A DNA stretch of 64,000 nt from assembly GCA_024686575.1 (NCBI GenBank), contig GCA_024686575.1_4863.1; one strand, written 5' to 3'. The stretch is from a phage. Positions 47,899 through 59,728 of this stretch are shown here, one piece after another (position 1 is the first letter of the stretch; every line of letters starts with the position of its first letter). The notes under the pieces are model-generated. The model was not told the DNA's origin. It was given only the letters and a program-made list of their open reading frames with translations, and searched no databases. A program made the translations under genes and the position numbers.

Positions 47899-49599
47899 TT
47901 AATCAATGAGACCGTTGCCGAGTCCGTTTCCGCCTATACCGCCTAAGCCACCACCCAGGTCAAGACCTCCAAGAGGATCTAAGCCACCTGTGTTAGTTGG
48001 AATGTTAGATAGCATTCGACCCCGGCCTTGGCCTTTCTCGAATTCTGTATAACCTTCTTCCACGGCTTTCAGCAGCGTTGCAGTGTTCTGTGCCAGCTCA
48101 CCAACGTATTTGAGATCGGTGGTGTTGCCGGTATGGAGACGGAATTGCATAAACGACGCGTAGGTGTAATATTCCAGCGGTTCGTCGTCGACACGGATTT
48201 CAATACGAGTAACGGTCCCCAACAATGCGGTGACCAGCATGTGACAGCGAATATGGTTATGTTTAGTAACCTGAACCATCGCTTCTTTCATGTTCTGCAA
48301 GAAACGACGACCTAATGCAGCAGGTAACTGATGATGTGTGATGCTGCTGACTGAGTTAGGAATAACTTCCAACGTAGGCTCTATCATGATATCCGTGTTA
48401 CGGTTATCAAAGACAAAGCTCACTTCGCCAATCAGGTTACGTGACATAATCGGCCCGATAGACATAGCCAGATCATACGCAACTAGACTACCCTGAGTAG
48501 AAAAGCCGTTACGTCCAATCCAGTGGTCGGTTTGGTTAACCAGCCCTGCACCCAACCCACGGCGACTTGCCAGCGCCAGCGATTCACGGATACATTCATC
48601 CAACCGCATTGGGTTGACAATCGCATTACGCAAATCAGCCAAACGGAACGTCGCCTTACTGGTTGCTTTCCAACCGCCAGATACATCAGACATCCCGTTC
48701 TGGAGTGCTTGACGCATCGCAGCAATCAGTTCGTGGTTGCTGTAGTTACGGATAACACCACGCTGCTTCAATTCAGATTCAACGCCGATGGAGTTATTAC
48801 CTGCAAAGAAGCTTTCCACGCTACCGAGTTCGGTATCTACCCCAGAGCTTGCCAGATACGCATTACTGATTGCAGATACGTAGTTTTCCGGACGCTGGAG
48901 TTGGGATACCATCAACTGTGGTGCAGAGCTACTGGTTGCGGATAGCACAGAGTCGCTCGTTGGAACGAACTTCTCACCGCTATTCATTTCAATACGTTTT
49001 ACCATATCCGCTGCTTTCGCGATCGAAATGATATCTACCGTACTTTCTGTTTGACCTTCAACAGACAGCGCTTTCGATAAAACGTAGTTATCCAGTAGAC
49101 GGAATGAGTCTGGGTTCAATGTTTTGCCGCCCAGGGCATCGTGTGTATACGTTGCCTGTAAGCCGTAGATGTCGTTAATGTACAACACCATATCGTCCGG
49201 CAGCAGGCTACCCAGGCTGGTTTCTGCCTGACTGGTATAACCGGAGACGATGTATTGCGTTTCCTGAGTGCGTGTTGCATTCAGAGGTTTAGCAATAAAC
49301 ACCGCCACGAAGTTAAAGATACCGGTATCACGTGATTCCCATTGGAACTGTACAGGACGATTGTCATCATCGGACACGTTGATGAATGGACGCTCAAAAC
49401 CGTTCTGGGTGCCATCGAAGCCCACGATGGCAGATAATGCTTCTTGATACTGCTGTGTTCCCACAGCTTTTTCCCCGCCCAGTTCAACCGCTGCTGCTAA
49501 GTCATCCAGTGCACCCGTCGATGCGTTAAAGCCGATGCGGCGACGAACTTGCTCTGGAACATCGTAGACCGGATACATCAGTAGATTTACAAGCTGCAT
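47899..49599 (-). CDS. hypothetical protein with Gly/Leu-rich C-terminal tail
   Basis: 566 aa; C-terminus GGLDPLGGLDLGGGLGGIGGNGLGNGLID. Confidence 0.55.
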   Translation of the reverse strand: MQLVNLLMYPVYDVPEQVRRRIGFNASTGALDDLAAAVELGGEKAVGTQQYQEALSAIVGFDGTQNGFERPFINVSDDDNRPVQFQWESRDTGIFNFVAVFIAKPLNATRTQETQYIVSGYTSQAETSLGSLLPDDMVLYINDIYGLQATYTHDALGGKTLNPDSFRLLDNYVLSKALSVEGQTESTVDIISIAKAADMVKRIEMNSGEKFVPTSDSVLSATSSSAPQLMVSQLQRPENYVSAISNAYLASSGVDTELGSVESFFAGNNSIGVESELKQRGVIRNYSNHELIAAMRQALQNGMSDVSGGWKATSKATFRLADLRNAIVNPMRLDECIRESLALASRRGLGAGLVNQTDHWIGRNGFSTQGSLVAYDLAMSIGPIMSRNLIGEVSFVFDNRNTDIMIEPTLEVIPNSVSSITHHQLPAALGRRFLQNMKEAMVQVTKHNHIRCHMLVTALLGTVTRIEIRVDDEPLEYYTYASFMQFRLHTGNTTDLKYVGELAQNTATLLKAVEEGYTEFEKGQGRGRMLSNIPTNTGGLDPLGGLDLGGGLGGIGGNGLGNGLID

Positions 49600-49611
49600 T
49601 TTAAATACTCC

Positions 49612-51246
49612 TTAAGAATTAAACCATTCAACTTCTTCTAACTTGCGACGTGCATTCAACACCATAAACTCCGCCAGGCTATTGTGCAGTGACAAGTGAG
49701 GTATATAGTTTGGCTGATCCGTCTCACACTTCAGCAGCGCAGCTGCTTCTGGTGTAGCCCTGAGATGGAACAGATACGGGTTGATGTGATCCTTGTGTAA
49801 CAAGGTCAGTGATTCCCGTGGTGTAGATTGCGGTTCGAGATTACGCGGGTTGCGATACTCCTGAAGATAATATCTATCTAAATCTGCTTTGAGTTCAGAT
49901 CGAATTGGGTCGGCTGCATAACCGGCAGACATCTCAGAACGCACCATATTGCAACTTAACAGTTGCGCAACGTCATACATTCCATAATTGAGATAAGTTG
50001 CCTGTGCTAACGCCATGCCGTAGCGAAACGCTTCTGGTCCACATTCGGTATACGTCTTATAATGCGCGCTACGATGGAGTGCTAATGCGACTAACCATTC
50101 GTGGAGCGTATAGACAGGACCGTCGTGTGTTGCCAGTTGCGAATCAATCAATAACTTAACATCTGCTGGAGCGGCATTATCCAGGCGCATTGTTTTCAAG
50201 AAAGAGCGGTATTCTTTAAATACGTACTCGGTACGGACGTATTCTTTCATCTGGGCAGGAGAACGTGCCTGCACCAAATCCATGGCGTTTATCTTACCCT
50301 TTTCGCCATTGAATATCACACTTTCTGGATGCGCTTTTAACAGCACCGGCTGGTTAGAGATTTTGTTTGCAAAACCTGTTTCAATCTCTTGTTTAACCAG
50401 AAAATACATGCCGGTGACGATATTGTTGTTAACCATGATTTCAACCGGTAATTCACCACCGACTTCACGGACAGCCAACAATTTAATAATAGCATACGCC
50501 AGGATATAATCTTCCATCATATCCGTGCCATAGCCCCGCACAGTAGCCAGTACCGACAAACTGGTGCTGTTCGTACCTTTGTTTGCCAGTTCTTTTTCTA
50601 CCTTTTCCATCACTGTCTGTAGGAACCCACGCAGTTTCGGAATAGCAGGTAAAGACATGACTTCTGTGTCTTGAAGCATCTCCAGACAGTATGTCAGATT
50701 GTACACCATTTTCCGATGTGTTTCGATTGGCAAGTTCTTACCTATCGGGAACGTCCCCATGGTGAGGAACACCGGAATATACGGTTTAATCATCAGGACC
50801 AGTATCAACAACTCGTAATAGTCCGGACGAATGTACGTCATCGCTTCCGGATAATTACTGTTCATTTCATCGTGCGTATCTTCCATGTTCTGCGGAATCC
50901 ACAGCTTATCGATGGGATACAGCTTACGATACACTTCGGCCTTGTGGAACTTCGCAATCGTCTGCACAATCTTCGGCATGTGCTTACGCTGCGTTTCCGT
51001 CGATTCGTTTGCCAGCTCGTCCAGCATCAGATACGCCATGAACAGTTCATCTTGTTCGTCTGGCGTTAAATAATCCCACACGCGTTGTAATTCCATGAAG
51101 AGAATGTTGTCGCGTGCAATCTGTTTACCTTTAACAGTGATGTAGTCGGGTGCGTTGTTATCCTTCCGATAACGTAAGCCAATAAATGAGACCTCTTGAC
51201 CATGATGCTCGATTGTCATCCGGTCTTTAATCTTCGTAATTTTCAT
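49612..51246 (-). CDS. hypothetical protein
   Basis: 544 aa, ATG with GGAG RBS; 15-mer motif 35 nt upstream; a second copy of the motif lies inside the 3' part of this ORF. Confidence 0.55.
   Translation of the reverse strand: MKITKIKDRMTIEHHGQEVSFIGLRYRKDNNAPDYITVKGKQIARDNILFMELQRVWDYLTPDEQDELFMAYLMLDELANESTETQRKHMPKIVQTIAKFHKAEVYRKLYPIDKLWIPQNMEDTHDEMNSNYPEAMTYIRPDYYELLILVLMIKPYIPVFLTMGTFPIGKNLPIETHRKMVYNLTYCLEMLQDTEVMSLPAIPKLRGFLQTVMEKVEKELANKGTNSTSLSVLATVRGYGTDMMEDYILAYAIIKLLAVREVGGELPVEIMVNNNIVTGMYFLVKQEIETGFANKISNQPVLLKAHPESVIFNGEKGKINAMDLVQARSPAQMKEYVRTEYVFKEYRSFLKTMRLDNAAPADVKLLIDSQLATHDGPVYTLHEWLVALALHRSAHYKTYTECGPEAFRYGMALAQATYLNYGMYDVAQLLSCNMVRSEMSAGYAADPIRSELKADLDRYYLQEYRNPRNLEPQSTPRESLTLLHKDHINPYLFHLRATPEAAALLKCETDQPNYIPHLSLHNSLAEFMVLNARRKLEEVEWFNS
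49865..49879 (-). promoter_or_regulatory. conserved 15-mer AGATAATATCTATCT, copy 4 (inside a coding region)
   Basis: Exact 15-mer embedded in the 3' part of CDS 49612..51246, 266 nt upstream of the next gene start (49599). Confidence 0.4.
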
Positions 51247-51280
51247 TATAGTTGAACTCCGCGAATAGTCGATTGCACTG

Positions 51281-51295: not shown

Positions 51296-51381
51296 CAATC
51301 TTCTTACAGTGTGTGTTGCAGGACCACGCATAAGCGTTAATAGCCCAAGGTCTCCCTTGGGCGTATTTTTTATTTTGTTTC

Positions 51382-52038
51382 TTAGAGGAATTCGTCGTAA
51401 GAATCAGTGGTTGCTGGAGGTGCAGATTGTTGCTGTTGATAACCGCCGCCGCTGCGCTGACCACCACCCTGGCCACCGCCGTATCCGCCACGACCGAAGC
51501 TACCACCACCTTGCTGGAATTCACGCGGCTTATATTTCTCTTCCAGGTTCTGTAAGAACTTCTCGAAGTTAGTGATAAACGCACGTGCACAGCGCTCAGC
51601 AAGTTCTAAATCAGAAACCTGCTGGCCATCGCGGAAAATACGGAATCCTTTCGGGTAGGAGAAGTAGAACTTCTTCTGGCGGGCACCAACGCCCTGGATT
51701 TCACCGGCAATAGCGATGAACGGTACCAGGTTGTCTTCACGGCCAACAATCAGACTAACGGGCGGTTTGTTGCCGTTTTCGTTAGTAAACTTCAGCATAC
51801 TCTTTTCGCTCTTACGCAGACAATCCTGCAGAGCTTCGATAATGGTACGGCAAACCGTAATCGGTGCAGAGAAATAGAGACCTTCGCCCTTACCAAAAGA
51901 GTAGCTAAACTTCATAGTTTCAACATCACCGTTGAAATCATTCGGTTCAATGTTGAGTTTACGCGTACGGTTTTGCTGATCCGGTTCGGTCTGCGGGTAA
52001 AGCCATTTGTCTTTGAAAATTTCTTGGTTAATCATCAT
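51382..52038 (-). CDS. SSB-like protein (Gly/Gln-rich linker plus acidic C-terminal tip)
   Basis: Internal start MMINQ with AAGGA RBS. C-terminus GGGSFGRGGYGGGQGGGQRSGGGYQQQQSAPPATTDSYDEFL resembles the bacterial SSB Gly/Gln linker and acidic tip (…DFDDDIPF); the N-terminal domain was not recognised. Confidence 0.4.
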   Translation of the reverse strand: MMINQEIFKDKWLYPQTEPDQQNRTRKLNIEPNDFNGDVETMKFSYSFGKGEGLYFSAPITVCRTIIEALQDCLRKSEKSMLKFTNENGNKPPVSLIVGREDNLVPFIAIAGEIQGVGARQKKFYFSYPKGFRIFRDGQQVSDLELAERCARAFITNFEKFLQNLEEKYKPREFQQGGGSFGRGGYGGGQGGGQRSGGGYQQQQSAPPATTDSYDEFL

Positions 52039-52103: not shown

Positions 52104-52940
52104 TTACTTCATAAGCCTGCGGAGCAGTTCAATTACAAATGGCTCATTCACCAGTTTTAGACAGTTATAAATACGGTCCATTGTGGTATCCTGTTTCCAG
52201 CTGTACTTCTCTGCGGTTTTTAACACCACCCCACGCGTTTTGCGATCGAGGGGTGAAAACATTATCCCGTCGCCAAACAACGTCAGGAACGCTTTGTTAA
52301 ACGGAATATGTTGGGGTTTCCCGTTAAGTTTGGTGTACCACTCCAGTTGCGTTTTCACTTTACCGGTATGTGATTCCAACAAACCCAGTTTAGGGAAATC
52401 TTTACGTGCCAGGAGATCAGCTGGCATGTGGGTCAGTAACAGTGTGTCGCGGCTACCCTCTGGGAAAACATCGAATTGACGGAAGTCATTTTCGTGTTTC
52501 TCACCGTACATCTTTAAAGTGTCGTGTTCCAGTGCATTATAGTGCAGCTGGTTTGGCGTCATCTTATCCTGACCGCCTGCAATGTTTTTGAACGAGGCTT
52601 CGGGAAACACTTTGTTAGCGCTACGATAGCTACAAAGGTACGGAACGCATAACACCGAAGGGGCTACCGCTCTCGCGGTAGCCGTAAGATTATTAATATC
52701 TTCTTCAATCGATGTTAGCATCACGTCGGGTGTTAACCGTTCTCTATTCTCTTCAAACGCATAGAAGGCGTTACGGAACAATGTCCGGAGATTCAGGTAT
52801 ATTTCCTGATAGGAATGGATAGGCAATTCGCCTTTCCAGTCGGCGTATTCGCCGGTATGCAGCAGACCTTCAAACGCCAGCGAACTGGCGATTGACACTG
52901 AATAGAACCCGAAAGTGCGATCAACACTGATTGGATTCAT
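52104..52940 (-). CDS. hypothetical protein
   Basis: 278-aa ORF overlapping the upstream gene by 4 nt. Confidence 0.5.
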   Translation of the reverse strand: MNPISVDRTFGFYSVSIASSLAFEGLLHTGEYADWKGELPIHSYQEIYLNLRTLFRNAFYAFEENRERLTPDVMLTSIEEDINNLTATARAVAPSVLCVPYLCSYRSANKVFPEASFKNIAGGQDKMTPNQLHYNALEHDTLKMYGEKHENDFRQFDVFPEGSRDTLLLTHMPADLLARKDFPKLGLLESHTGKVKTQLEWYTKLNGKPQHIPFNKAFLTLFGDGIMFSPLDRKTRGVVLKTAEKYSWKQDTTMDRIYNCLKLVNEPFVIELLRRLMK

Positions 52941-54088
52941 TCTATTTTCCTAATGATTGCAGTAACAACATCAGGGTCGTACTTCACTGATGTTAGCTCT
53001 TCGAGAACTAATCGTTCAAAGTTCTCAGGAGTAGGTTTTTCGTACACTGGGGCTTCGTTCGAAAAACTCTTCACTAACAACTCCTCTTCTTCAGAGGAGC
53101 GCACACGTTCTCCAGAAATGTGGAACGTGTATTCTTTTTTCCACCGACTAACATATTCGGCCATCGGTGAACCTGCGTAATACTCGACTTCAAATCGTCC
53201 AATAGCGGACGAAGGATGATTGTCGATGTATTCTAATGCAGAAAGACAAGCTGCTAACTGCGCATCAAAGTCTTCCTGTGCCCGAATCTTTTTCTGCGGG
53301 CACGCGCGTGGGTTAACCAGGAAATAGTCCCTGGCAACCGTATCGGTGAAATCGACAAGAGCTACGCCTTTGTCCTCCTCTTCACCTTGAGATAGTCGCT
53401 CAGGACTACCTACAACTCTTATCTTGTCTAATTCTTTAGGTCGATGGTCATGCCCGATAAATATCAGGTGCTTGACTCTCGGCAACCAGAACTCCTCGTG
53501 GAAAGAACGAGGGGACTCGACAGGGAGTTGAAACTGGAAGCAGCCGTGCATGAAGATAAAGTCTAACTTCTCCAAGCCTCGTGTCGCCATCAGTTCTGCC
53601 ATTTCTGCCTCAGTGGCAGCAGCATTAATTTCATCGACGCCAGCAGCTTTATATTCGTCCTGCACCCAACCTACCGTCGCATCGAGAGCCGGATCGTAAA
53701 ATATCCCGATCCCTGCCAAATACAAACAGTCTGCGCCTATACTGATGTTCAGCGACTCAACTATTTTGGACTGGCCGTGGTCATGGGACGGTGTTCCCTC
53801 AACGATGCGAACTGCGGTATTGGTGGCCTTAGACCACTGGAGCAACCACGTCAAGAAGCCCACAGCTTCTTGAGAATCTTCCTGGCGAAGATGTCGGGAA
53901 TCATCAAATAAATCTCCCGCTATATAAAAGGCATCAAGCGTATTTTCGCAGCTAATGAGTACCTCACGTATCACATCCACGATGTGCCAAGTAGGCACAC
54001 GCTTATGCAACAAATGGATATCATTAGTGTTCAAAAGGCGCTTAACGCCTTCTGGTTTCTTGGGAGGTTTAGTAATCTTCTCCATCAC
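52937..54088 (-). CDS. calcineurin-like metallophosphoesterase, Mre11/SbcD-type nuclease candidate
   Basis: 383 aa; phosphoesterase motifs in order and spacing: TNDIHL (D-x-H), IAGDLFDD (GDxxD), VEGTPSHDHG (GNHD-like), FIFMHGCF and IFIGHDHRP (GH/GHxH). Confidence 0.65.
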   Translation of the reverse strand: MMEKITKPPKKPEGVKRLLNTNDIHLLHKRVPTWHIVDVIREVLISCENTLDAFYIAGDLFDDSRHLRQEDSQEAVGFLTWLLQWSKATNTAVRIVEGTPSHDHGQSKIVESLNISIGADCLYLAGIGIFYDPALDATVGWVQDEYKAAGVDEINAAATEAEMAELMATRGLEKLDFIFMHGCFQFQLPVESPRSFHEEFWLPRVKHLIFIGHDHRPKELDKIRVVGSPERLSQGEEEDKGVALVDFTDTVARDYFLVNPRACPQKKIRAQEDFDAQLAACLSALEYIDNHPSSAIGRFEVEYYAGSPMAEYVSRWKKEYTFHISGERVRSSEEEELLVKSFSNEAPVYEKPTPENFERLVLEELTSVKYDPDVVTAIIRKIE

Positions 54089-57874: not shown

Positions 57875-59728
57875 TTACAGTTTGAAGTTGCTCAGAGACA
57901 CGCCCAGACCGAAATCGGAACCGCTTGCAGACAGGCCGTTGCCAGACAGCGTGAAGTCTTCCCCACCGTTGTTGAAGAACAGGGAGGTCGCCATCGTGTT
58001 GTAGGCATTTACACCAGTCATAGACCAGGTGCAGTTGTTACGGACGAAGTCCAGCAGGCATTTACCGAAGATCGGGTTGATAGCCATATCCAGAGATTCA
58101 CCGGTAGCTTGCGGTGCTTTGGATGCGAACAGAGAAGCGGCCAGTTTCAGCATGTAGATACGCTGCTGACGCTCGTTCAGTTCACGGTGGCTGTAGGACT
58201 GTGCGTTCAGGTAGCTATAGACGTCGTTCGCGTTATCACCCAGTTTGGTAACAACGGAAATCAGGTCCATATCCTGGAAGCTGCGTTTCTGTGCAGTACC
58301 GGTGTAAACACCGGAAACAGTCGGTACGGCTGCTTTCACGATGTGGCTGCAATGGATGGTACCATTGAAGGCATCGCCCAGCTGTGCTTTCAGTGCAGAA
58401 GCAAATACTGCAGTGAAGCTGGTCGCTGCAACAACTTCGCCGTTCTGATCACGCGGGGACATGGAATTCAGAATAGCGAGCAGCTGTTTCAGAGAGTTGT
58501 CGTAACCGACCGCAATTTCAGACAGCATAGTAGACAGACCACCCAGGCCGTTACCGGCACGATGGCTAACTACCAGTGCTGCTTCACGCGGTGCGAACAT
58601 ATCCAGGCAACCTTCGATAGCTTCACGGCTACCGTCGATTTTGGATACATCAGGACGAGCGTCAGCACCCCAGGACAGGTATTCTGCCACACGGGAGAAC
58701 TTGCGATCTTGTTTGTTCAGGCGTTTCACAAACAGGTCACGCCAGCCACCGATTGCCGCGATTTCTGCAAATGCAGCCAGCAGCAGCAGTTGACGTTCAT
58801 ACGGTGCCATTGCACCTTCAGTTTGAGAATCGACCAGACTTACTACGATTTCAGCCTGCAGCTGTTTCAGGTCGTAGACGCCGTTAACGACAGGCTTCTG
58901 ACCGGTGAAACGCATATTGACGAAACCGGTACCGGATACACGCGGATACACCTGTACCTGATTGGTGTCCAGCAGAGTCGGAGTGGCATCGGTTACGTTG
59001 CTTGGGCTGTGCTCAACGGTGATTGCGAAATCAGCACGTTGTGCGTGGCCGTTAGCATCCACAACCGCGCCATCTTCCAGCGGCATTACTGAGGCCTGAT
59101 AACGGTCATGCTTACGCAGGTTCAGTGTACCCAGGTAGCCTGCGATACGACCGAAGATTCCCATCATCATCTGACCCATCAGGGTACGTGCCCACTCAGC
59201 ATCCAGAACTTTACCCAAGTCTGGTACGGAGTTGATGATCATGAAGTTCGCATTGGTCAGACCATGCGCTTCCATGATGTTTTTCTGTACTACTGCCAGC
59301 ACGTCTTTGTTGAACAGTTCAGTGATGGTGTAGTAGTCTTCCTGGCCGTTGTTGGTGGTTTCTTTCAGACGCAGAGACTGACCGCGTTCAAAGAAGATAA
59401 TACCGTACAGCCAGTGGCCCTGCCATTGGCCTGCGACGTACGCCGCGGAACCCATTTCGTTACCCACGCCGACGATGGTGCCCCAGCGGAATGCGTTGAG
59501 GTATTCGTTGCTTTTCTTCAGCTCATCCAGGAGGTTGGTGAAGTGCATTGCATAAGTGCTGATGTTGCGGATGCCAAATGCGTTATCGAATTGGCTGACA
59601 GTAGAAGTACCCGGCACAGCAGTTTGCACTTTTACAGTCTCGTTGCCCAGACCGCCCAGTGGTGCGGTGTCTTGAGTCTGAGTGTTGTTCTGCTGAGCGT
59701 TGTTGTTAGAGTCAACGATTTTTACCAT
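57875..59728 (-). CDS. abundant-protein candidate (nuclear-shell-like or major structural protein); function unassigned
   Basis: 617 aa; ATG with AAGGA RBS; two copies of the 15-mer motif upstream (59774-59788, 59868-59882) and a terminator-like hairpin downstream; Gly/Ser-rich C-terminus. Confidence 0.6.
   Translation of the reverse strand: MVKIVDSNNNAQQNNTQTQDTAPLGGLGNETVKVQTAVPGTSTVSQFDNAFGIRNISTYAMHFTNLLDELKKSNEYLNAFRWGTIVGVGNEMGSAAYVAGQWQGHWLYGIIFFERGQSLRLKETTNNGQEDYYTITELFNKDVLAVVQKNIMEAHGLTNANFMIINSVPDLGKVLDAEWARTLMGQMMMGIFGRIAGYLGTLNLRKHDRYQASVMPLEDGAVVDANGHAQRADFAITVEHSPSNVTDATPTLLDTNQVQVYPRVSGTGFVNMRFTGQKPVVNGVYDLKQLQAEIVVSLVDSQTEGAMAPYERQLLLLAAFAEIAAIGGWRDLFVKRLNKQDRKFSRVAEYLSWGADARPDVSKIDGSREAIEGCLDMFAPREAALVVSHRAGNGLGGLSTMLSEIAVGYDNSLKQLLAILNSMSPRDQNGEVVAATSFTAVFASALKAQLGDAFNGTIHCSHIVKAAVPTVSGVYTGTAQKRSFQDMDLISVVTKLGDNANDVYSYLNAQSYSHRELNERQQRIYMLKLAASLFASKAPQATGESLDMAINPIFGKCLLDFVRNNCTWSMTGVNAYNTMATSLFFNNGGEDFTLSGNGLSASGSDFGLGVSLSNFKL

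Follow-up and report, generated by a model that had tools for sequence, protein, structure and literature searches.

What does the minus-strand open reading frame (ORF) at positions 51382-52038 of a 64,000-nucleotide stretch of phage DNA (contig GCA_024686575.1_4863.1, hereafter the window) encode? A preliminary description made from the letters alone had called its product SSB-like, on the strength of a C-terminus recalling the Gly/Gln-rich linker and acidic tip of bacterial single-stranded DNA-binding protein (SSB), and had offered it as either a divergent phage SSB or a mimic competing for host proteins that interact with SSB. Our analysis indicates, with a probability of roughly 0.88, that its product is the ChmC/Imp6 ortholog of a Seoulvirus, one of the core proteins of the nucleus-forming jumbo phages (Chimalliviridae), which combines a predicted Whirly domain with an SSB-like tail and probably acts at the phage-nucleus shell with Imp1/PicA.

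Translation of the ORF from the ATG at 52038 as far as the stop codon (51382-51384) yields a protein of 218 residues, and its C-terminal end, ...GGYGGGQGGGQRSGGGYQQQQSAPPATTDSYDEFL, is the one given in the preliminary description. The longest mechanical reading of the same ORF extends up to 52077 (231 residues). Homologues of the 218-residue protein start with M(M)INQE, which favours a start at 52038 or one codon further in at 52035, the second methionine and the start given in GenBank/RefSeq; an AAGGA Shine-Dalgarno sequence lies 4-7 nucleotides 5' of the ATGATG start. Megablast aligns the window with Salmonella phage SPN3US, SEGD1 and Proteus phage 7 at 99.4-99.6% identity, and on this nucleotide identity it belongs to an SPN3US-like Seoulvirus jumbo phage, with relatives of about 240 kb that are related to phiKZ. 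The SPN3US copy of the gene, gp29, is known from an amber mutant and was counted as one of three essential non-virion proteins without an assignable function; a table in the same study gives it no match in phiKZ, 201phi2-1 or PhiPA3 (Thomas et al. 2016, PMC5105663). Every matched phage record labels the gene 'hypothetical protein' or uses an equivalent placeholder. Copies in the Salmonella phage records SPFM5, 7, 8, 9, 10, 12, 14 and 20 (LR535903-LR535917) are fragmented or scrambled, matching in 2-5 BLAST pieces at 2-3 places per record, and the predicted proteins P0014, P0026 and P0028 carry repeated or permuted N-terminal segments. These scrambled copies look like assembly artefacts and not biology.

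To which family does the protein belong? Over its full length it matches phrog_3284 (E 4.7e-66), as does phiKZ gp67 (E 6.1e-80), and this family is matched by 54 of the 54 relatives that we collected whereas Pfam SSB is matched by none of them. A first hhalign comparison with the phiKZ clade gave a probability of 95.4% over a region that overlapped the low-complexity tail, and for this reason the comparison was repeated with all tails cut. Without tails, the SPN3US and phiKZ clades still matched at 99.0% probability (E 2.2e-18, 153 columns), and both matched an intermediate group at 99.8%. The gene order points to the same family. Read from 54088 to 47899, the window has the PHROG order 100-3229-3284-3209-3141, identical to that of phiKZ gp65-69, and by tblastn positions 39102-63945 are collinear with phiKZ gp50-gp75, with the gp50 DNA polymerase at one end (63933) and the gp75 helicase at the other (39102), and including SbcD and non-virion RNA polymerase (nvRNAP) subunits. 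By the tail-less profiles, phrog_3284 and gene order, the gene is a previously unlabelled member of the known ChmC/Imp6 family and not a divergent SSB, so that the first of the two earlier suggestions falls.

With the named members of this family (PhiPA3 gp61, phiKZ gp67, Goslar gp176 and 201phi2-1 gp123) the protein shares PHROG 3284, a predicted Whirly-like fold, a similar size, the layout of a domain followed by a disordered G-rich linker and an acidic tip, and the slot between SbcD/gp66 and gp68/Imp1. The gene is also essential or important for infection both in SPN3US and in phiKZ/Goslar. The differences are an identity of only 15-21%, a linker that is Gly/Gln-rich and without Asn instead of Asn/Gly-rich as in the Pseudomonas phages, and a tip reading SYDEFL in place of FDEDMPSF (phiKZ) or FDDEIPNF (PhiPA3).

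The preliminary description had seen no obvious OB (oligonucleotide/oligosaccharide-binding) fold in the N-terminal part, and the predicted structure bears this out. An AlphaFold2 model of the 218-residue protein, built from a 14-sequence alignment, reached a predicted template modelling score (pTM) of 0.70, with a predicted local distance difference test (pLDDT) score that for most of residues 11-160 is around 90 or above. Its topology is beta-beta-beta-alpha followed by beta-beta-beta-beta-alpha, and the structural comparison gave scores of 9.2 for 3n1h (StWhy2), 8.5 for 1l3a (PBF-2 p24), 8.4 for 2gia_A (Trypanosoma brucei MRP2), 7.3 for 3k44 (Pur-alpha) and 7.0 for 2gia_B (T. brucei MRP1). 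In the model, residues 1-172 are a Whirly/PUR-type fold, made of tandem repeats of beta-sheet plus helix; structure prediction, which had been put forward as a check on the SSB assignment, returned a domain of another type. Identity to the superfamily members (StWhy2, PBF-2 p24, MRP1/MRP2 and Pur-alpha) is 5-11% in the structural alignments, and the first repeat has three strands where the superfamily has four. At E up to 1 the protein matched neither Pfam Whirly (PF08536) nor PurA, and a search of PDB sequences with the ChmC-family profile returned no Whirly or PUR chain, which puts the kinship at the level of the fold only; searches of Pfam and PDB sequences with the single protein gave low-complexity noise only. 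To our knowledge an SSB-type tail is not a feature of Whirly/PUR superfamily proteins. The folded domain has a net charge of +3 and an isoelectric point of 8.7, the phiKZ and PhiPA3 domains have a charge of +5, and the basic residues K50, R100, K123, K130, R149 and R152 are invariant in the clade (14-homologue alignment).

We regard it as extremely improbable that the protein is an OB-fold SSB, however divergent, of the kind found in bacteria, T4 (gp32) or T7 (gp2.5); the resemblance of the tail is the one argument for this, and the predicted structure contradicts it. T4 gp32 and T7 gp2.5 do have an acidic tail with a hydrophobic end, which regulates single-stranded DNA (ssDNA) binding and recruits replisome partners. 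Unlike the protein studied here, both are built on an OB fold, and their acidic tails are short and have no long Gly-rich linker.

What is known of ChmC/Imp6 in other phages gives the ortholog a probable role; tetramer formation, RNA and DNA binding, condensates, Imp1 binding and essentiality are taken here from relatives or from SPN3US, and our own analysis shows the ORF, its predicted fold, a folded domain that is homologous, conserved gene order and a tail statistically similar to that of SSB. ChmC has a predicted Whirly fold and is a homotetramer by size-exclusion chromatography with multi-angle light scattering (Enustun et al., bioRxiv 2023; NAR 2024, PMC11077065). What is known of its oligomeric state, binding and condensates comes from the PhiPA3, Goslar and phiKZ proteins. 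PhiPA3 ChmC binds single-stranded RNA (ssRNA) with a Kd of 58 nM, more tightly than ssDNA (184 nM; Hill 2.4, cooperative), and mutation of K30, R35, R44, K48, K59 and R63 abolishes RNA/DNA binding (PMC11077065). It is expressed early, is second in abundance among the non-structural proteins, was found with the RecA-like UvsX by proximity labelling, and lies at the shell and not throughout the DNA-filled interior (PMC11077065). In infected cells ChmC cross-links to phage mRNAs near start codons; it is needed for infection, and its knock-down lowers phage protein levels globally (PMC11077065). The disordered C-terminus of about 50-70 residues, an N/G-rich part followed by an S/D/E-rich end, is required for condensates and, in PhiPA3, also for localisation to the nuclear shell (PMC11077065). 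In phiKZ, gp67 was named Imp6 and binds the import factor Imp1 (gp69) at about 2:1, the contacting region of Imp6 not being reported (Kokontis et al., bioRxiv 2024). ChmC is also listed as important in a phiKZ antisense screen. The SSB label therefore survives in part: characterised members of the family do bind single-stranded nucleic acid, with ssRNA (58 nM) preferred over ssDNA (184 nM). Given a net basic domain and invariant basic residues of its own, the present clade is likely to bind nucleic acid as well.

Could the protein nevertheless be a working SSB for replication and recombination, that is, a Whirly-fold SSB analogue on phage ssDNA inside the phage nucleus, with its tip as a hub for replication and repair enzymes? 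Such a function would be compatible with a role on RNA, and it would fit the cooperative ssDNA binding, abundance, early expression, tetrameric state and UvsX proximity of PhiPA3 ChmC. It would also fit a comparative survey in which the classic OB-fold SSB marks group 2 jumbo phages and not the phiKZ-like group 1 (Iyer et al. 2021). The window contains no recognisable OB-SSB-like sequence (best E 0.27); a further SSB of SPN3US was sought in the window only, and this limit tells against the argument. The threefold preference of the relative for RNA, the mRNA cross-links near start codons, the global fall of phage protein on knock-down and the position of PhiPA3 ChmC at the shell, away from the DNA-filled interior, all speak against a replication SSB, and we consider it doubtful.

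Several observations weigh against the assignment to ChmC/Imp6. Pairwise BLASTP to phiKZ gp67 is not significant (E 1.2), so the orthology rests on profiles, fold and synteny; the same lack of pairwise significance explains why the link to phiKZ was missed in 2016. With tblastn, this protein and phiKZ gp67 each find their own clade only, and profiles are needed to join them. The six residues required for binding in PhiPA3 ChmC, which we verified in the PhiPA3 sequence, map to R24, N29, T41, Y46, G53 and S57, only one of the six being basic, in a profile alignment whose confidence is low in that half of the protein. In the same low-confidence half, the first beta-sheet of this clade has several conserved acidic residues. 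Finally, the slot of the window where a chimallin is expected holds none that PHROG, Pfam or BLASTP can recognise. With tblastn, the phiKZ ChmA, Imp3, ChmC and Imp1 genes had no match in the window at E up to 1; profiles recovered the ChmC and Imp1 orthologs of the window, and not ChmA.

We then turn to the tail, the feature that had first drawn attention to this ORF. Residues 173-218 have a pLDDT of 31-42 and are predicted to be disordered. These 46 residues contain 33% Gly and 17% Gln, with no Asn in the linker, and the last 15 carry a net charge of -3. The motifs GRGGY and GGGYQQ in the linker recall low-complexity regions that favour phase separation. Fourteen homologues with 42-89% identity all keep the G/N/Q-rich composition, the GGY motif and a tip of the form [FY]-D-x-[FYM]-[VLIF], in which D215 is invariant. 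At the level of the whole family, where identity is about 20%, a G/N/Q/S-rich tail is present in 54/54 members; it measures 33-70 residues in 53 of the 54, the automatic boundary having failed for P0020. Each of the 54 has a net negative charge over its last 15 residues and a hydrophobic residue within the last three positions, and at least two of the last eight residues are acidic in 50. The common layout is a G-rich part, then a Q/A/P-rich part, then an acidic-aromatic end. Among 340 stop-to-stop segments of at least 60 residues in the window, such a C-terminal pattern occurs in this gene alone.

The likeness of this tail to that of bacterial SSB was examined with the linker and tip of E. 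coli SSB (sequence from MG1655) and with composition-preserving shuffles throughout. The local alignment of the two tails scores 73, against 45.8 ± 7.7 for the shuffles, of which 5 of 2000 reach the real score. Both have QQSAP directly before the tip, and their compositions are 0.33 (this protein) and 0.26 (E. coli SSB) for Gly and 0.17 in both for Gln. A hidden Markov model (HMM) built from the family tails only gives the E. coli SSB tail 44.2 bits, compared with 13.9 ± 3.4 (maximum 28.3) for whole-tail shuffles, none of which reaches it in 5000. When the tip was kept and the SSB linker shuffled, the mean was 30.0 ± 4.1 bits and 6 of 5000 shuffles reached the real score. With the 18 members that have an SSB-type tip removed from the HMM, the score was 39.2 bits against 14.4 ± 3.7 (0/5000). 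A search of all PDB sequences with the ChmC-family profile had a bacterial SSB tail as its top match (7f2n_A, E 0.0045), the family consensus ...qsapaa..ad..dfDddipf being aligned to ...QQAPAApsnEPpmDFDDDIPF; E. coli SSB was also among the matches (E 0.48). The earlier remark that the C-terminus mirrors the SSB linker and tip is thus upheld by the shuffles, for this protein (5/2000) and for the family HMM (0/5000).

That such a tail is a neutral low-complexity appendix without function, resembling SSB by accident of composition, is hardly credible. Gly-rich tails are common, and weak Gly-rich Pfam matches were the only ones obtained, as a neutral tail would have it. Yet the tail is kept in every relative at about 20% identity and in an ordered layout, the likeness exceeds that of composition-preserving shuffles (0/5000, and 6/5000 with the linker alone shuffled), and PhiPA3 ChmC without its tail forms no condensates and loses its place at the shell.

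Three classes of tip can be distinguished among the 54 relatives. Eighteen have an SSB-type end (acidic, then I/L/M-P-F/Y/M), among them phiKZ gp67 (AFDEDMPSF), PhiPA3 gp61 (GFDDEIPNF), P0063 (SFDDDLPF) and the metagenomic members P0040 and P0043, whose end DDFDDDIPF is exactly that of E. coli SSB; DFDDDIPF is also the consensus tip for the family. Eleven, among them this protein (SYDEFL) and its clade, are of an 'FDEFV' type, and the other 25 have other acidic-aromatic tips, such as AFDGLAF in Goslar. In the protein studied here the tip D-S-Y-D-E-F-L is acidic and aromatic, without the I-P-F of a bacterial SSB tip. The idea that the relatives ending in DFDDDIPF are true SSBs drawn in by their tails was rejected, as none of the 54 relatives matches Pfam SSB; with their tails cut, the DFDDDIPF-ending proteins still match the domain of phiKZ gp67, with E values of 4e-19, 7e-16 and 1e-16 for a database scaled to one million sequences, the first two values being those of the two metagenomic members with DDFDDDIPF. 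Judged from these comparisons, the SSB likeness of the tail is genuine and family-wide, with a tip that has drifted to SYDEFL in the clade of the window.

These tip classes bear on the second of the earlier suggestions, that the tip is a decoy. It would bind host SSB partners (ExoI, RecQ, RecJ, PriA, Pol III chi and others) and either titrate them from host SSB or drag them to the phage nucleus. The I/L/M-P-F type end of 18 of the 54 members, phiKZ gp67 and PhiPA3 gp61 included, the exact E. coli SSB tip in two metagenomic members and the family consensus all agree with this. The tip DSYDEFL, however, lacks a Pro-Phe end, and tips differ between phages of the same or related hosts, both enterobacterial (SPN3US SYDEFL, Goslar AFDGLAF) and Pseudomonas (phiKZ and PhiPA3). 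The host SSB tip is, as far as we know, invariant. The strong variation of tips among phages that share hosts makes a co-evolving partner encoded by the phage, or self-interaction, more likely than host mimicry, and fits such a partner or a generic acidic-aromatic tail better than a decoy. Mimicry by this protein is accordingly unlikely, and the members that end in DFDDDIPF keep both the mimicry and the hub readings alive for the family.

Like bacterial SSB, the protein is predicted to bind nucleic acid as an oligomer and to continue into a disordered Gly/Gln-rich linker, a Q-S-A-P stretch and an acidic tip with a hydrophobic end; it differs in having a Whirly-like instead of an OB DNA-binding domain and characterised relatives that prefer RNA. 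E. coli SSB, too, forms condensates that depend on its linker. A search of 5,426 E. coli genomes found no DNA similarity to ssb, in a test limited by the low-complexity filter, and because of this there is no sign that the tail was captured recently; the data fit an ancient capture as well as convergence. The SSB-type tail of the ChmC/Imp6 family has apparently gone unremarked in the literature that we searched. The NAR 2024 paper on ChmC takes the tail's end to be an 'electronegative cluster' and does not mention SSB (PMC11077065). A link of ChmC to SSB was found neither in the text of that paper nor in two recent reviews, and literature searches for SSB in Chimalliviridae or SPN3US returned nothing relevant. 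The recognition that the family tail is an SSB-type linker-plus-tip module may therefore be the new part of this analysis.

Taking the protein as ChmC/Imp6, we propose the following mechanism. The Whirly domain most likely oligomerises (as a tetramer in PhiPA3), and the oligomer most likely coats single-stranded nucleic acid without sequence specificity, with RNA preferred to DNA in the characterised relative. The Gly/Gln/Tyr-rich linker would provide weak multivalent contacts for condensates, and the acidic-aromatic tip would either fold back on the basic nucleic-acid surface and compete for it or dock on a partner. Competition of a tip for the basic binding surface is known from SSB, T4 gp32 and T7 gp2.5. 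The protein probably acts at the phage-nucleus shell with Imp1/PicA, where it would handle nascent phage mRNA, contribute to the import complex, or both. By analogy with phiKZ, the Imp1/PicA ortholog in the window would be the partner, the one with published evidence in the family. We infer both that this clade still binds nucleic acid and what its tip binds.

As a tentative extension, the whole ChmC/Imp6 family might have an SSB-type tail module, possibly taken from an ssb gene of bacterial or phage origin and joined to a Whirly domain. In the phage nucleus ChmC would then play the part of an SSB hub: it would coat single-stranded nucleic acid while its tip recruited readers of SSB tips (phage replication and repair enzymes, Imp1/PicA or host SSB partners), and the tip of the SPN3US clade would have co-evolved with its partner to FDEF[VL]. 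If the tip works as an SSB tip, it would connect ChmC/Imp6, a factor in RNA export and protein import, with enzymes of replication and repair or with the host's SSB partners, and the lack of a recognised SSB in phiKZ-like phages would be explained. SPN3US gp29, known since 2016 as essential yet lacking an assignable function or a detectable phiKZ counterpart, now has a probable function, and the likeness of its tail to the linker and tip of bacterial SSB is a testable feature of a core phage-nucleus protein. The amber-mutant genetics of SPN3US makes tail and tip variants directly testable.

Table 1. Coordinates in the window of the ChmC/Imp6 ortholog, its parts and its neighbours.
Feature	Position	Strand	Basis or remark
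Coding sequence of ChmC/Imp6 ortholog, 218 aa (SPN3US gp29 / SPN3US_0029 / ACQ60_gp237)	51382..52038	-	identical protein (100%) in SPN3US, SEGD1, SaP7 and Proteus phage 7; phrog_3284 E 4.7e-66
Predicted folded Whirly/PUR-like domain, residues 1-172 (strands 29-58 + helix 60-75; strands 80-125 + helix 143-168)	51523..52038	-	
Predicted disordered Gly/Gln/Tyr-rich linker, residues 173-206, EFQQGGGSFGRGGYGGGQGGGQRSGGGYQQQQSA	51421..51522	-	low pLDDT (31-42); GGY and G-rich pattern kept in homologues
Acidic-aromatic C-terminal tip, residues 207-218, PPATTDSYDEFL	51385..51420	-	D215 invariant; aromatic/hydrophobic positions kept
phiKZ gp69 ortholog (Imp1/PicA), gene two downstream of ChmC gene	47899..49599	-	both in phrog_3141
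phiKZ gp68 ortholog (nvRNAP subunit), directly downstream	49612..51246	-	both in phrog_3209; tblastn E 1e-12; gp68 role from Kokontis et al., bioRxiv 2024
phiKZ gp66 ortholog, directly upstream	52104..52940	-	both in phrog_3229; tblastn E 1e-29
SbcD-like nuclease (phiKZ gp65 ortholog), marker of the conserved block	52937..54088	-	phrog_100; annotation; tblastn E 1e-28

Further observations concern the genes around the ChmC gene (Table 1). The slot of chmA, between the DNA polymerase and the nvRNAP beta subunit, is occupied by a minus-strand ORF of 617 residues (57875-59728), phiKZ ChmA having 626. Its product belongs to phrog_8316 and not to phrog_4795, has no Pfam match and shows no BLASTP similarity to phiKZ ChmA; it is probably a very divergent candidate chimallin. 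Salmonella phages are counted among the nucleus formers (Kokontis et al., bioRxiv 2024). The Imp1/PicA ortholog (47899-49599, minus strand) ends in a Gly/Leu-rich low-complexity tail, ...GGLDPLGGLDLGGGLGGIGGNGLGNGLID, so that both Imp1-Imp6 partners have Gly-rich tails in this phage.

The SbcD-like gene overlaps the downstream gp66 ortholog by 4 nucleotides (52937-52940) and its upstream neighbour by 20 (54069-54088), which suggests translational coupling in the block. The ChmC gene, unlike the SbcD-like gene, is flanked by spacers of 65 and 135 nucleotides. A scan for promoters and terminators around the ChmC gene gave nothing above chance. A sigma-70-like match (TCGACT-16 nt-TATAAT, 10/12) lies at 51245-51272 on the minus strand, directly 5' of the gp68-like gene; the region has two such matches, not above the shuffled expectation of 1.4. 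A perfect 8-bp G+C-rich hairpin, GCCCAAGG-TCTC-CCTTGGGC, lies at 51343-51362, 20 nucleotides 3' of the stop codon of the ChmC gene. It has the T-run of an intrinsic terminator on the plus strand only, and all neighbouring genes are on the minus strand; it could be a bidirectional element or one that stabilises the RNA of a highly expressed ChmC gene.

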